A stretch of DNA of 61,208 bases, counting the filler, from a candidate division TA06 bacterium SM23_40 (lineage in GTDB: Bacteria; LJUI01; SM1-40): assembly GCA_001303705.1 (NCBI GenBank). It is 5 parts of 5 records of this genome, joined end to end, with 100 filler letters (N's around TTAATTAATTAA, not from the genome) between each part and the next. Parts side by side here need not be neighbours in the genome. Positions count along the whole stretch, not along the records: positions 32,925 to 38,019 come from LJUI01000172.1; 4 more parts are not named here. The stretch is one strand, 5' to 3'. Made by a program: the position numbers and the translations under genes. The notes beneath the pieces are model-generated. The model saw only the letters and a list, made by a program, of their open reading frames with translations, was not told where the DNA came from and ran no database searches. Positions 18,231-55,833 of this stretch are shown one piece after another; within the stretch, counting starts at the first letter, position 1, and every line of letters begins with the position of its first letter.

Positions 18231-18330
18231 NNNNNNNNNNNNNNNNNNNNNNNNNNNNNNNNNNNNNNNNNNNNTTAATTAATTAANNNNNNNNNNNNNN
18301 NNNNNNNNNNNNNNNNNNNNNNNNNNNNNN
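18231..18330. other. artificial contig-joining linker
   Basis: N-run + TTAATTAATTAA (stops in all six frames) + N-run. Confidence 0.98.
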
Positions 18331-32824: not shown

Positions 32825-32924
32825 NNNNNNNNNNNNNNNNNNNNNNNNNNNNNNNNNNNNNNNNNNNNTTAATTAATTAANNNNNNNNNNNNNNNNNNNN
32901 NNNNNNNNNNNNNNNNNNNNNNNN
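32825..32924. other. artificial contig-joining linker
   Basis: N-run + TTAATTAATTAA + N-run. Confidence 0.98.
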
Positions 32925-33151: not shown

Positions 33152-34543
33152 TCAGATCGGCTCGAACCGTGCCGTGAAGTGCCGCAGAAACGGGGCTTCA
33201 TAGGTCATCCGCAGCCCCCTGAGCTCGTCCTTTCGCTTCACGATCTCGGCGAAGACCTGGACCACATAATCGAGGTGCGCCTGCGTGTATACACGCCGGG
33301 GAACTGCCAGCCTGACGAGCTCGAGCAGCGGGTAGACCGTCTCACCTGTCTCAGGATCGACCTTCGTGAATGCGACCGTCCCCAGCTCTACGGCGCGGAT
33401 ACCCCCTTCGATGTACAGCGCTGTGGTCAATGCCTGGCCGGGGAACTTCGACTGAGGGATGTGCGGGAGAAAGCGCTTGACATCGATGTACACAGCATGT
33501 CCCCCGATGGGCTGCAGTACGGGCACTCCCACACCAGCCAGCTTCTCGCCGAACATCCGTACCTGGGCAACCCGGTAGGCCAGGTGGCGTTCGTCCACGG
33601 CCTCCTCTAATCCGATCGCCATCGCCTCGAGGTCGCGTCCGGCTAGGCCCCCGTAGGTGGGAAAGCCCTCGTACAGGATGAGAAGGTTCCTCATCGCCTC
33701 GGCGAGGTCATCGATGTTCGTGGCGATGAACCCGCCGATGTTGACGAGCCCGTCCTTCTTGGTGCTGATCGTGCATCCGTCCGCATAGGAGAACATCTCC
33801 CGCACGATCTCCGGTATCGTGTGCGTGCCGTATCCCGCCTCCCGCTCCTTGATGAAATAGGCATTCTCCGCGAACCGACAGGCATCGATGAACAGAGGGA
33901 TGTTGTGCGGTCTGAGCAGTTCCTTGAGGGAGCGGATATTCTCCATGGAGACAGGCTGGCCCCCTCCGGCGTTGTTCGTCACGGTGAGCATGCAGATCGG
34001 TATGACTTCCGGACCGACCTCCTTGATGAACTCCTCGACCCTCTCGAGGTCGATGTTCCCCTTGAACGGATGATAGGTCTCGGGATCGGTCCCTTCAGGG
34101 ATCATGAAATCTACGGCGGTCGCGCCTATGTGCTCGATGTTTGCCCGTGTCGTATCGAAGTGGGTGTTACTCGGAATCTGACTGTCAGAGTGGGCGATCG
34201 TGGCGAACAGGATGTGTTCGGCAGCCCTCCCCTGATGCGTGGGAAGAATATGTTTGAATCCGAAGAGCCGCTGGACTGTCTCAGTGAGTCGATAGAAGTT
34301 GCGGCTGCAGGCGTAGGCCTCGTCGCCCATCATGATCCCCGACCACTGGCGATCGCTCATTGCCGACGTTCCGCTATCAGTCAGCAGATCGACGAAGACC
34401 TTTTCCGCCGGAATCCCGAAGACGTTGTACCCCGCGGCCTCGAGAATCGCCTGCCGCTCCTCGCGAGTCGTGGCCGCAATGGGCTCCACCACTTTGATCT
34501 TGTAGGGTTCAGGCATCGGTGCCCCATTGTCGGTCACACTCAT
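33152..34543 (-). CDS. tnaA: tryptophanase (PLP beta-eliminating lyase)
   Basis: DLLTDSGT, THQGR and PLP-lysine STKKD. HFDTT, EGFPTYGG and LRHFTARF match tryptophanase rather than tyrosine phenol-lyase (FTTT, GMPSYGG, LRFF). Confidence 0.9.
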   Translation of the reverse strand: MSVTDNGAPMPEPYKIKVVEPIAATTREERQAILEAAGYNVFGIPAEKVFVDLLTDSGTSAMSDRQWSGIMMGDEAYACSRNFYRLTETVQRLFGFKHILPTHQGRAAEHILFATIAHSDSQIPSNTHFDTTRANIEHIGATAVDFMIPEGTDPETYHPFKGNIDLERVEEFIKEVGPEVIPICMLTVTNNAGGGQPVSMENIRSLKELLRPHNIPLFIDACRFAENAYFIKEREAGYGTHTIPEIVREMFSYADGCTISTKKDGLVNIGGFIATNIDDLAEAMRNLLILYEGFPTYGGLAGRDLEAMAIGLEEAVDERHLAYRVAQVRMFGEKLAGVGVPVLQPIGGHAVYIDVKRFLPHIPQSKFPGQALTTALYIEGGIRAVELGTVAFTKVDPETGETVYPLLELVRLAVPRRVYTQAHLDYVVQVFAEIVKRKDELRGLRMTYEAPFLRHFTARFEPI

Positions 34544-35076
34544 CCTCCCTTCAATGATTCGAAGACGATGAAATCGACACGATGGACGATGATCGCCTCC
34601 GGTGTCCGTTTCGATCTATCTCCTTCGTGCGCATGAACGGCGATCACATGGATCACCTCGGGCGGGAGATCGTGCTTGGTCGCCAGGCCCATCCCGCTGA
34701 ACGGATGCCGCAGCAGCTCACCATGCCGGCTCTTTCCGAATCCGGCTCCGCTCCGTTCGTACTCCAGCAACTTGCCCACGTCGTGCAGCAGGGCTCCCGC
34801 GACCAGAACCTCAGTATCCAGAGAGAGGTGATCGGCGAACAGATCGGCCATCACTCTCGCTGTGTCGAAGGAGATACGACAGACAGCTCTTGTATGCTCG
34901 ACGATATTGACGGGACAGTCGGGAATGAGCAGCGTAAAGGGGATCTCCGCGAGATCCCCGATCGACCACCCGCCCAGCTCGATAGCGTCCAGCCACACCG
35001 CCTCCACTTTCGACCTGAGGCCGGCATCCTCGATCAGATCGAGCTCAGGAAACAGGGTCGCAATCTCATTGGCCAT
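34540..35076 (-). CDS. HD/HDIG-domain metal-dependent phosphohydrolase
   Basis: EHTRAV, ALLHDVGK, LRHPFSG, HVIAVH and HRVD; stop overlaps the tnaA ATG. Confidence 0.88.
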   Translation of the reverse strand: MANEIATLFPELDLIEDAGLRSKVEAVWLDAIELGGWSIGDLAEIPFTLLIPDCPVNIVEHTRAVCRISFDTARVMADLFADHLSLDTEVLVAGALLHDVGKLLEYERSGAGFGKSRHGELLRHPFSGMGLATKHDLPPEVIHVIAVHAHEGDRSKRTPEAIIVHRVDFIVFESLKGG

Positions 35077-35086
35077 CACTACCCCC

Positions 35087-35857
35087 TCAGCCCTTCGGCC
35101 CGTCGTACTCGAAATCCCGCGGGTGGATGACACGCATCGGCTTCTCTCGCGTCTGTTCCTCCCGGATCTGGGCCACGAGCCCGGCCACGCGGGCAATGAT
35201 GAAGAACGCATTCCCCAACTCAGCGGGAAATCCCATCTCACAGAGGACGGCGGCGATCGCCCCATCGACGTTTATCGGCAGCTTCTTCCCTGAGTGTTCC
35301 TCGAGCGCCGCCTCGATCGCCCGGGCCATCTCGATATAGTCACCGGAGACGCCCAGCTCGTCAGCGAGACTGAAGAGCTTCACCTTGCGGGGATCGACCG
35401 GATGGATCCGATGCCCGAATCCCGAGAGCCGCTTCTTCTGCGCCGCACTCTCTTCGACCAGCTCACGCGCCACCTCAGCGGACGAGCGACCTGACGCTCG
35501 TCGCCGCTCCACTGCGCCGGCCAGTAGCTTCATACAGGCCTCCACGGCGCCTCCGTGGAACCGCCCGATCGACAGGATGCCGCTCGCCAGGGCGGCCGTG
35601 AGCGGCACGCCGGTACTCGCCACGGTCCGTGCCGCGATCGTCGACGGAGGAGACGCTCCGTGATCGACCGATGAGACGAGGATCGCATCCATCAGCGCGC
35701 CGTGGGCCGGTGTCGGTTCTTCACCCTTCAACAGGAGGTACACGACCTGTGCGAACGTCGCCTTGCCCATCAGATCTTGAATCGGGCGGCCTCGCACACT
35801 GACCTTCCCCGGGCCGATCTCGGTGATCGCTGTCTTCCACTTCGTGCCCTCTGCCAT
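35087..35857 (-). CDS. citryl-CoA lyase-like protein (short citrate synthase family member)
   Basis: 256 aa with WKTAIT, DHGASPPS, HGGA, GFGHRIH..DPR and PINVDG. Confidence 0.85.
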   Translation of the reverse strand: MAEGTKWKTAITEIGPGKVSVRGRPIQDLMGKATFAQVVYLLLKGEEPTPAHGALMDAILVSSVDHGASPPSTIAARTVASTGVPLTAALASGILSIGRFHGGAVEACMKLLAGAVERRRASGRSSAEVARELVEESAAQKKRLSGFGHRIHPVDPRKVKLFSLADELGVSGDYIEMARAIEAALEEHSGKKLPINVDGAIAAVLCEMGFPAELGNAFFIIARVAGLVAQIREEQTREKPMRVIHPRDFEYDGPKG

Positions 35858-35972
35858 CCTACCTCTCCCGTACGGTGACCATGCTCCTCTGTGCCATGAC
35901 CATGTGTCTCGCTATCTCTCGTTCACGCGGCGTCCGTAACATCCGTGTCGGGCCGCGGCGGACTTCTCCACC

Positions 35973-36839
35973 CTAGCCCAGGGCGTCCCCGAGAAGCCGC
36001 GGTACGTCGAGAAAGGTCTTCGCCATCTTTGCGCCCGCCGCCTCGAGTGCCTCGAGCTTGCTCTTCGCCGTCCCCATCTCCCCCTCGATGATCGCCCCGG
36101 CATGCCCCATCCGCTTGCCGCGCGGCGCAAACACCCCGCCCACCATCGCGATTACGGGCTTGGATACTTCGGGAATCGTGGGTGCCGCCATCTCCTCGTA
36201 CACGCCGCCGATCTCGCCCACGAGGACAACCGCATCGGTATCGGGATCCTGATCGAAGAGTTCGAGCACCTCGCTGAAAGTCGTTCCAAGGATCGGATCG
36301 CCTCCCAGCCCCACGCAGGTCGACGCCCCATACCCCGAGTAGGTCAGGGTATCGGCCACATAGTAGGTGATCGACCCCGACCTCGATACGGTGCCGATCC
36401 GCCCCGGGCTGAATGCGACCTCCGGGAGAATGCCGAGGAGCCCCTGCCCGGGAGAGATCACCCCGGGAGTGTTGCCGCCGAGAACCATCGCCCCGTGCGC
36501 CGCAGCCTCGTGACGAATGATGAGCATATCGTGAACCGGGATATGTTCGGGGACGATGATGACGAGCTTGATGCCCGCCCTGATCGCTTCGAGTGCACCA
36601 TCGAGGACGAAGCGCGCCGGCAGAAAGAGCACGCTCGTATCGGCCCCGTGTTCGGCCACGCACTCCGCCACTGTATCGTACACCGGAACGCCGTGGACCT
36701 CGCTCCCTCCCTTGCCGGGAGACGTACCGGCCACGATCCGTGTGCCGTAGTCGAGCATCCGCTTCGTATGGAACGTGCCCGAACCGCCGGTGATGCCCTG
36801 TACGATCGCCTTCGTCTCTCTGGTCACCAGAATCGCCAC
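35973..36839 (-). CDS. succinyl-CoA synthetase alpha-like subunit (possible citryl-CoA synthetase small subunit)
   Basis: VQGITG, PGKGG, SRSG, GLGGD, GEIGG and phospho-His motif RMGHAGA; GTG start. Confidence 0.88.
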   Translation of the reverse strand: MAILVTRETKAIVQGITGGSGTFHTKRMLDYGTRIVAGTSPGKGGSEVHGVPVYDTVAECVAEHGADTSVLFLPARFVLDGALEAIRAGIKLVIIVPEHIPVHDMLIIRHEAAAHGAMVLGGNTPGVISPGQGLLGILPEVAFSPGRIGTVSRSGSITYYVADTLTYSGYGASTCVGLGGDPILGTTFSEVLELFDQDPDTDAVVLVGEIGGVYEEMAAPTIPEVSKPVIAMVGGVFAPRGKRMGHAGAIIEGEMGTAKSKLEALEAAGAKMAKTFLDVPRLLGDALG

Positions 36840-36994
36840 TCGTCACATCCCTCCTCGCTCCACTGCTCGATACTCCATTCGATCCCCAACATACCCAGGC
36901 ATCTTCACGACGCGTGCGGCACCCGCCTGCCCTTCCTTCCCGTCTCGCCTCTCACTATCGACCATCACACAAGGCTTCCTATCGTGGACACCAG

Positions 36995-38019
36995 CTACTC
37001 TCCCTTCGCCAGCGCCACGGCGCGCTCCACCACGTCTTCGATGGGAGTCTCGATCCCGTGTATCTCGACCCGCTCGAACAGATCGGGCCGCCGCTTCTTC
37101 GCCTCCTCGAAGATGACCATTCCCTCCCGCCACATGTTCCCGGTCATGCGCATCGCCATCGGCTTCGACAGCCCGTGCTTCTCGAGAAACATCACCACTC
37201 CCTTGGCGAAGTCATCGCAGCGCGAGATCCCCCCGAACCGGGCACCGAAGATCGCCTTGACCTGGGGATTCTCGTCCAGGAGCTCGAGCATCTTGGCGAT
37301 CCGCTCAGGGGTTGGTCCGCCGCCCGAATCCATGAAGTTGGCGGGACGGCCGCCATAGTAGGTGACGAAGTCGTTCCCCATGATCCCGAACCCGGCCCCG
37401 CCGGGGAACATCCCGATATCCCCATCGAGGTCCAGATAGGGAATGCCGTTCTCACACGCCTCCCGTTCCCGATCCGTGAGCTCCCCCTCCTCGTGGCGCT
37501 CGCCGATTCCCATCGCCGCCAGCTCGGGATGGCGGAAGAGCGCATCCTCGTCGACGCTCATCCTGGCATCGCCGCAGACAAACGATCCCTCGGCCGTCTC
37601 TATGAGTGGATTGACTTCCAGGAGCTTCGCATCGGTGGCGAGAAAGACCTCGTGGAGCCTGGCGAGGAGCGAGCCTACCTGCTGGACCGGCTTTCCCGCG
37701 AGCCCCATCTTCTTCGCCAGCTCGACTCCTTGATGTGAGTACAGCGTCTCGCGCGGCATGAGAGAGAGACGGTGGATCTGGTCGGGATGGGCCCTTGCCG
37801 TCTCCTCGATCTCCACGCCTCCCTCGGCCGAGGCGATCGCCACGACACGGTAGGTGGTGCGGTCGATCGTCACCCCGAGATAATACTCCTTCGCGGTATC
37901 GAGGCGCTCCTCGACGAGGAGCCGCTCCACCAGATGGCCCTTGATGCGCCGCCCGAGGAGTTCAGTGGCAGCCTTCTCGGCATCGTCCGGCGAGGGCGCG
38001 AACCGGATCCCTCCCGCCT
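36995..38019 (-). CDS. succinyl-CoA synthetase beta-like ATP-grasp subunit (5' truncated; possible citryl-CoA synthetase large subunit)
   Basis: AGGIRF, EGGVEIE, EVNPL, DALFRH, GAG, PANFMDSGGG and FGGI; runs off the contig end. Confidence 0.88.
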
Positions 38020-38119
38020 NNNNNNNNNNNNNNNNNNNNNNNNNNNNNNNNNNNNNNNNNNNNTTAATTAATTAANNNNNNNNNNNNNNNNNNNNNNNNN
38101 NNNNNNNNNNNNNNNNNNN
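38020..38119. other. artificial contig-joining linker
   Basis: N-run + TTAATTAATTAA + N-run. Confidence 0.98.
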
Positions 38120-55733: not shown

Positions 55734-55833
55734 NNNNNNNNNNNNNNNNNNNNNNNNNNNNNNNNNNNNNNNNNNNNTTAATTAATTAANNNNNNNNNNN
55801 NNNNNNNNNNNNNNNNNNNNNNNNNNNNNNNNN
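55734..55833. other. artificial contig-joining linker
   Basis: N-run + TTAATTAATTAA + N-run. Confidence 0.98.

Follow-up and report, generated by a model that had tools for sequence, protein, structure and literature searches.

A ligase related to succinyl-CoA synthetase (SCS) and a stand-alone protein of the citryl-CoA lyase (CCL) family, encoded at one locus of the candidate division TA06 bacterium SM23_40 (GCA_001303705.1), are proposed here to act on homocitrate. The window, that is the whole stretch of 61,208 nucleotides that was analysed, consists of five contigs joined by N spacers (18231-18330, 32825-32924, 38020-38119 and 55734-55833; the spacers contain TTAATTAATTAA), and the ligase-lyase locus occupies the whole of one 5,095 bp contig (C154, LJUI01000172.1, 32925-38019). 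The ligase is a distinct, conserved paralogue of SucCD, hereafter clade 1. In genomes of another phylum it is found together with the CCL protein, a homoisocitrate dehydrogenase (HICDH)-like enzyme and either PrpD or a protein termed HacA2. From the gene families, motifs, co-occurrences and exclusions described below we infer substrates, stereochemistry and direction: an ATP-dependent homocitrate-CoA ligase and a homocitryl-CoA lyase would run the upper alpha-aminoadipate pathway backwards. We give this reading a probability of about one half; that the module serves homocitrate chemistry in one direction or the other is probable.

The ligase and the lyase

The motifs by which the first-pass annotation had set the ligase apart from SucCD, GMFPGGAGFGIMGND and GARFGGISRC in the beta subunit and SRSGSITYY in the alpha subunit, were all confirmed in the locus. 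Compared to E. coli SucC (NC_000913.3) the changes in the beta subunit include N264 to Gly and I318 to Arg, and the alpha subunit carries GGNTPG and SRSGSITYY in place of GPNCPG and SRSGTLTYE. Among the 120 best beta homologues (63-99% identical), GMFPGGAG[FY]GI[ML]GND was kept in 119 and GARFGG[IV]S[RK]CDD in all 120, and the canonical NGAGLA motif occurred in none. This conservation demonstrates that the motif changes did not arise by chance. In trees of both subunits (quick IQ-TREE and FastTree trees; CcsAB and AclAB sequences were not among the rows), the clade-1 sequences formed a group of their own (99% support), which excluded the genome's own canonical SucCD as well as MtkAB and E. coli SucCD. 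It lacks the canonical NGAGLA, NIFGG and SRSGTLTYE motifs and does not nest among canonical SucCD. Thus, the ligase is not an ordinary SucCD, as had been suspected from the motifs.

On C154 the beta gene is missing roughly the first 55 codons, and the scoring therefore used a full-length homologue, P0006 (395 aa, 99% identical). P0006 narrowly missed the cut-offs of the SucC models (359.8 versus 370 and 349.6 versus 375.55 bits), and the genome's own canonical SucC reached 524 bits on the model with the cut-off of 370. The score for MtkA was far below the cut-off (278 versus 604). The alpha subunit exceeded the SucD cut-offs (366 versus 353 and 357 versus 336 bits), and automatic pipelines therefore call it SucD. 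Because clade 1 retains the ATP-grasp residues as well as GHAGA, we expect the pair to be catalytically active and to form ADP, with the acid site changed. Clade-1 beta subunits carry GGAGFG, ANFMDSGGGP and MRMTGN where CcsA has its signatures (a GGGGS loop, ANFTD.GNPPA and VVRRNG), and the second Arg of VVRRNG is not kept. Similarity of the beta subunit to CcsA (E 7e-22) was much lower than to SucC (2e-65), and no Citrate_bind (PF16114) match was detected on it.

In a scan of species genomes, 13 of 80 retained loci were 60-76% identical to the ligase and the remainder 35-43%; at 50% identity clade 1 clusters into about three or four groups. Many other divergent SucC paralogues with differing acid-site motifs were seen among the 50% representatives (P0140-P0272). 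Other plasmid-borne SCS paralogues (L491, L492), which served as outgroups, adjoin oxalate and sulfoacetaldehyde catabolic genes.

The third gene of the locus encodes a protein of 256 aa, compared to 370-440 aa for full-length citrate synthases, which scored above the PRK06224 model cut-offs and below citrate-synthase models. Its best match in the PDB was Ccl of Hydrogenobacter thermophilus (6hxp, E 7e-57), and across 55 aligned rows H66, H101, H149, R157, D198, R223 and R242 were each conserved in 93% or more. Judged by model scores and residues, it is a stand-alone CCL-family protein with retained catalytic residues rather than an ordinary citrate synthase, which agrees with the first-pass annotation. 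A 47% homologue adjoins a CoA-transferase on an Agrobacterium plasmid; since members of the family thus also adjoin CoA-transferases in settings unrelated to this one, membership leaves the substrate open.

Co-occurrence, hydratases and alternative activating systems

Since the TA06 genome was the only one found in its phylum at a completeness of 80%, co-occurrence was surveyed in 151 genomes of another phylum, that of G005 (its locus is labelled Ca. Zixiibacteriota). Clade 1 was present in 108 of them (106 at E <1e-100 and two contig-cut copies assigned individually). Of these, 107 carried CCL, 106 an HICDH-like orthologue with the fungal motif, 106 PrpD or HacA2 and 103 all three (uncorrected for relatedness; a 29% PrpD match in G137 was scored negative). 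Among the 32 genomes with neither clade 1 nor clade 3, a second ligase type described below, the corresponding numbers were 11, 17, 4 and 4. Ligase, CCL and HICDH were jointly missing from 15 genomes, in none of which a fungal-type homoaconitase orthologue was found, although 95 of the 151 carry one (E <1e-125). The pairing of ligase and lyase claimed in the first-pass annotation is borne out at the level of the genome, and physical linkage is weak. In 93 clade-1 loci (flanks of median 9.4 kb; some loci possibly from the same species) CCL lay within the flanks of four, HacA2 of three, aldehyde dehydrogenase (ALDH) of six and the HD-domain gene of 15. Genome-level linkage is tight and local linkage loose.

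The module is separate from the tricarboxylic acid (TCA) cycle, since AcnA and isocitrate dehydrogenase (IDH) were kept in both module-less genomes tested, of the fifteen, and ordinary aconitase and IDH were also present in three module-positive genomes. The TA06 genome has a separate canonical sucCD, a point raised in the first-pass annotation, beside genes resembling 2-oxoglutarate oxidoreductase (OGOR) on contig C67. It also has a eukaryote-type Si-citrate synthase above the TIGR01793 cut-off on C182 (L123:1279-2685), an aconitase and a SANV-motif IDH, so that the needs of the TCA cycle are met separately. Of 13 relatives, nine have a full-length citrate synthase; a second sucC match was present in 12 of 13 genomes. 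A replacement of citrate synthase by ligase and CCL had been considered and was rejected when PF00285 found the citrate synthase that tblastn had missed. Of the reductive TCA enzymes, OGOR-like genes, malate dehydrogenase, IDH and aconitase were present, and no clear Sdh/Frd was detected by tblastn. Upstream of the sucCD/OGOR-like operon on C67 (L001:32-2820) lie an ALDH fragment and genes provisionally named GTPase-like and carbamate-kinase-like.

In addition, the genome carries HacA, HacB and a second, HICDH-like dehydrogenase. The loop of this dehydrogenase, GYRSPIVRMR, matches GYSSPIVALR of S. pombe HICDH and, unlike the genome's other paralogue, is without the IDH-motif Asn. No PrpD, CaiB or 3-hydroxy-3-methylglutaryl-CoA (HMG-CoA) lyase was detected in the genome, nor a DRE-TIM synthase (no PF00682 match). 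With HacA, HacB and HICDH present, the genome fits the HacA2 type defined below. Across the 151 genomes homocitrate synthase exceeded its cut-off in none (weaker DRE-TIM matches were seen in 51). PrpB likewise exceeded its cut-off in none of the 151, a search that did not include the TA06 genome. Controls were positive in both cases.

A citrate-synthase (CS) fold of the Si type is expected to act on (S)-homocitryl-CoA, and aconitase-family enzymes handle (R)-homocitrate. Because of this stereochemical mismatch a second hydratase, PrpD or HacA2, is predicted in company with a CS-fold lyase, and PrpD was distributed as predicted: it lies directly downstream of homoaconitase in six of 12 loci examined and is missing from genomes that have only the CaiB system. 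Orthologues of HacA2, a large subunit of the LeuC/homoaconitase family, were found in 16 genomes. None of these has PrpD, and none of the 105 PrpD-positive genomes has HacA2. As had been expected before the search, it marks the PrpD-less clade-1 genomes: 15 of 17 carry it, the remaining carrier being a fragmented genome with CCL. In four genomes it lies inside the ligase cluster. In the two clade-1 genomes with neither PrpD nor HacA2 the CaiB operon is present, and residues that are invariant elsewhere have been lost from the ligase. The motifs for CoA binding and the loop are degraded in these two copies (L506:6599-8696 and L507:259-1458), which may be decaying. Fungal and Thermus homoaconitases interconvert homoaconitate and homoisocitrate only, whereas HacAB of M. 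jannaschii carries out both steps (PMC3556520, in part). The methylcitrate cycle meets the same stereochemical problem by means of PrpD or AcnD/PrpF (PMC5690661, in the part drawn on here). In HacA2-bearing genomes HacA has an N-terminal extension of ~115 residues, giving frames of ~540 aa (e.g. L478:1489-3087).

Two further systems occupy the place of the clade-1 ligase. The clade-3 ligase was found in 11 genomes, none of which has clade 1 (108 versus 11, overlap 0). Its operons run beta, alpha, CCL, HD (in nine of 11, adjoining CCL) and then, in the regions examined, homoaconitase (TIGR00139 score 755, cut-off 530), with an HICDH-like gene nearby in most of them. Its beta subunit of ~520 aa has a C-terminal Cys-rich extension and shares the CcsA signatures except the second Arg of VVRRNG. 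Clades 1 and 3 group together as sisters with moderate support (88-95%), clade 3 on a long branch. The extension of one clade-3 beta subunit (L207:10123-11688) is ferredoxin-like. Of 17 HICDH-positive genomes without ligase, 13 had HMG-CoA-lyase-like matches and no PrpD orthologue. An operon of HMG-CoA lyase, CaiB and HacAB was seen in most of 14 regions examined (one is cut by a contig end), in which CaiB takes the place of the ligase and the DRE-TIM lyase that of CCL. We infer that clade 1, clade 3 and CaiB are interchangeable activating systems, clade 1 being a third, SucCD-derived activator, as their mutual exclusions tie the three to one chemistry. Tentatively, at somewhat less than even odds, ATP- or CoA-linked homocitrate cleavage evolved at least three times and in two stereochemical versions, (S) and (R), for a lysine catabolism that consumes CO2 and NADH and keeps the C5 skeleton. 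The (S) version would combine a CS-fold lyase, PrpD or HacA2 and a SucCD-derived or citryl-CoA-synthetase (CCS)-like ligase, and the (R) version CaiB, an HMG-CoA-lyase-fold enzyme and HacAB. Both would be one-carbon-longer analogues of the citrate-cleavage arm of the reductive TCA cycle.

Proposed pathway and rival explanations

In the proposed pathway HICDH would carboxylate and reduce 2-oxoadipate with CO2 and NADH to homoisocitrate, which homoaconitase (HacAB here, a Lys4-type enzyme in most relatives) would convert to cis-homoaconitate. The (S)-homocitrate needed by the Si-type CS fold would then come from a second hydratase, PrpD in most relatives and HacA2 in this genome. The ligase would activate it with ATP and CoA, via phospho-His, to homocitryl-CoA, and the lyase would release 2-oxoglutarate and acetyl-CoA. 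Lysine probably feeds the pathway, by the action of an omega-aminotransferase and an aldehyde dehydrogenase. A class III aminotransferase is the commonest neighbour of the clade-1 ligase (39 of 93 loci), and its best PDB match is 7vno, which we take to be PH1423. PH1423 is tabulated as an ornithine/lysine aminotransferase (PMC9986279, in the part consulted). Lysine breakdown is favoured because of this aminotransferase, the ALDH upstream of the ligase, the saccharopine-dehydrogenase-like genes (in four of five genomes) and the absence of LysX; LysX, LysA and the lysine aminotransferase LAT all exceeded their cut-offs in none of five genomes. The suggestion of the first-pass annotation that the module serves amino-acid use rather than reductive carbon fixation is thus probably right.

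The reaction of the module should be reversible. In the synthetic direction the same enzymes would join acetyl-CoA and 2-oxoglutarate to homocitryl-CoA, conserve the thioester as ATP and deliver 2-oxoadipate for lysine synthesis or oxidation; by analogy with ATP-citrate lyase the overall reaction is expected to be near equilibrium, homocitrate synthase is absent, and LysA was not found in this genome or in G101. With LysX over its cut-off in none of five genomes, however, and an adjacent ALDH of the non-acylating type, which points to an oxidative step, this direction appears unlikely (a Lys2-type reductase was not searched for). A route in which homoaconitate is the acid activated and water is added to its CoA ester, possibly by the HD protein or HacA2, or in which another 2-oxoacid is shortened, is likewise improbable. 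It would give the HD protein, which has no assigned role, something to do, it would accommodate the recurrence of TrpB2-like and Tna genes nearby and the breadth of the Hac and HICDH families, and it agrees with fungal and Thermus homoaconitases stopping at homoaconitate (PMC3556520, in part); but PrpD takes free acids as substrates, as expected if hydration precedes activation, the Lys4-type homoaconitase passes its equivalog cut-off, and the loop of the dehydrogenase is of the HICDH type.

The first-pass annotation had favoured citrate as the substrate and had named homocitrate only among acids for assay; the survey did not support citrate. Two-step cleavage of citrate by a citryl-CoA synthetase and a lyase, yielding acetyl-CoA and oxaloacetate in a heterotroph, for instance from glutamate via reversed IDH, would explain the closeness of the lyase to H. 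thermophilus Ccl, its intact catalytic residues, the pairing of ligase and CCL in 107 of 108 genomes and the retention of both in G006 and G008, which lack HICDH. It is nevertheless quite improbable. Citrate is symmetric and requires no PrpD, HacA2 or homoaconitase, yet these and HICDH track the ligase; clade 1 lacks the CcsA signatures and lies closer to SucC than to CcsA, and the TCA enzymes are encoded separately. An SCS isoenzyme, or a ligase for a dicarboxylate such as glutarate, unrelated to the lyase, is very unlikely. The alpha subunit does pass as SucD, the pair follows sdhAB-like genes in locus L007, and a D-2-hydroxyacid dehydrogenase lies within the flanks of 19 of the 93 loci, compared to four for CCL. 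Canonical SucCD is retained alongside, however, the changed acid-site motifs are invariant, and clade 1 is never found together with clade 3 and has degenerated in genomes with the CaiB route.

Several observations weigh against homocitrate cleavage as proposed here. The lyase retains the citrate-type arginines, and no residue change indicating 2-oxoglutarate was found in it. The whole HICDH-like protein scored about equally as NAD-IDH and HICDH and stayed under the AksF cut-offs. Neither a PH1423-type aminotransferase nor a saccharopine-dehydrogenase-like gene was found in this 90%-complete genome. No PrpD or HICDH gene lay inside the flanks of any of the 93 clade-1 loci. CCL is retained without a ligase in the 11 of 32 genomes mentioned above. 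Three ligase-positive genomes of the 151 have no HICDH. G006 and G008 carry ligase and CCL and no HICDH orthologue, in assemblies that are gapped or fragmented; in G006, a scaffold with N gaps, sdhAB precedes the ligase. Genomes beyond the 151 that do carry an HICDH orthologue are G012, G010 and G009. The co-occurrence counts come from one phylum, which excludes the TA06 genome, and the 16 HacA2 genomes may represent a single event. Finally, aconitase-family enzymes are assumed to be limited to anti eliminations (PMC5690661, in part), which leaves the formation of (S)-homocitrate by HacA2 in place of PrpD unexplained.

The arrangement, a real and conserved one, works like the CCS/CCL system and is not a member of it. 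As in CcsAB and Ccl of H. thermophilus (6hxq, 6hxp), an SCS-fold ligase and a stand-alone CS-fold lyase are combined in two steps; unlike there, the module partners are homoaconitase, HICDH and PrpD or HacA2, in genomes with an intact citrate synthase. With SucCD of E. coli and T. aquaticus (3ufx) the ligase shares the fold, the ATP-grasp residues and the phospho-His motif, at an identity to canonical sequences of ~38-40% (beta) and 51% (alpha), and it differs in coexisting with them as a separate clade. The homoaconitase-family and HICDH-motif enzymes resemble those of the fungal and Thermus upper alpha-aminoadipate pathway, from which the module is set apart by ligase and lyase in place of homocitrate synthase, by the lack of LysX and by a probable reverse direction. 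In MtkAB with malyl-CoA lyase, too, a hydroxy acid is activated by an SCS paralogue and passed to a lyase; MtkAB belongs to a different clade, and the malyl-CoA lyase fold differs from that of CCL. As in the 2-methylcitrate cycle, a PrpD-family dehydratase would act on the acyl-derived arm of a CS-fold product, and an aconitase-family enzyme replacing PrpD has a precedent there (PMC5690661, in part); unlike in that cycle, PrpB is over its cut-off in none of the 151 genomes and a decarboxylating dehydrogenase tracks the module instead.

In the literature searched (subscription journals and supplements were not covered) no published description of the module was found, and the term 'homocitryl-CoA' was absent among the matches listed. 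If the proposal is correct, a homocitrate-CoA ligase and a homocitryl-CoA lyase, two new activities, are hidden under SucCD and 'citryl-CoA lyase' labels in an undescribed route for lysine or 2-oxoadipate. The bacteria concerned have been known until now from metagenome bins; when plasmids were searched with HICDH, HD, HacA and CCL and four regions examined, no cultured carrier of the module was seen among the matches listed. Clade-1 homologues with a source name are labelled succinyl-CoA synthetase. CCS/CCL are treated as a marker of the reductive TCA cycle (PMC9802188, in the part consulted), and pairs of SCS-like and CCL genes are open to misreading as evidence of carbon fixation. A reversible, ATP-coupled link between 2-oxoglutarate plus acetyl-CoA and 2-oxoadipate may also be of interest for engineering adipate pathways.

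Gene layout and neighbouring genes

The five co-directional genes noted in the first-pass annotation were confirmed, all on the minus strand (Table 1). The gaps measure 155 nt between beta and alpha, 115 nt between alpha and CCL and 10 nt between CCL and HD, and HD and tna overlap by ATGA.

Table 1. Genes and spacer of the ligase-lyase contig, in positions of the window
Feature	Position	Strand	Remarks
Clade-1 ADP-forming acyl-CoA ligase, beta subunit (SucC paralogue)	36995..38019	-	5' end cut by contig end; proposed homocitrate-CoA ligase beta
Clade-1 ligase, alpha subunit (SucD paralogue)	35973..36839	-	GTG start; GHAGA phospho-His motif
Stand-alone citryl-CoA-lyase-family protein, 256 aa, citrate-synthase fold	35087..35857	-	proposed (S)-homocitryl-CoA lyase
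HD-domain protein	34540..35076	-	PF01966; family travels with module
Tryptophanase-family beta-eliminating lyase	33152..34543	-	PRK13238 subfamily
Spacer up to contig end	32925..33151	-	HacA2 starts 264 nt after tnaA in near-identical contig L365

L365, a contig from a metagenome, matches C154 at 99.4% identity and contig C68 of the genome at 99.96%. Its gene order is ALDH, beta, alpha, CCL, HD, Tna and HacA2, so that a non-acylating ALDH stands directly upstream of the ligase, and HacA2, which is not in the genome's own assembly, is present. The dnaK-dnaJ and pst/pho genes that flank the locus in the window belong to other contigs and are not its true neighbours.

The tryptophanase-family protein scored above the PRK13238 subfamily cut-off and under the equivalog cut-offs of TnaA and of tyrosine phenol-lyase (TPL), and it lacks what we take to be the TPL-type Arg motif. 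Judging by spacing it is co-transcribed and probably stands outside the ligase chemistry; with Tna near the ligase in ten of the 93 loci, it is a loose neighbour of the module. The HD gene lies upstream of homoaconitase in six of 12 loci. Tna or TrpB2 recur at comparable positions in ligase clusters, and an asparaginase-II-family gene, the substrate of which may differ from asparagine, lies near the ligase in 18 of the 93 loci (e.g. L011:6783-7796). PrpD-less genomes (L509-L512) share a cluster of class III aminotransferase, ligase, asparaginase-II-like, HD, TrpB2-like and HacA2 genes, joined in three of the four by a D-2-hydroxyacid dehydrogenase and in most by a membrane protein and an unassigned protein of 364 aa.

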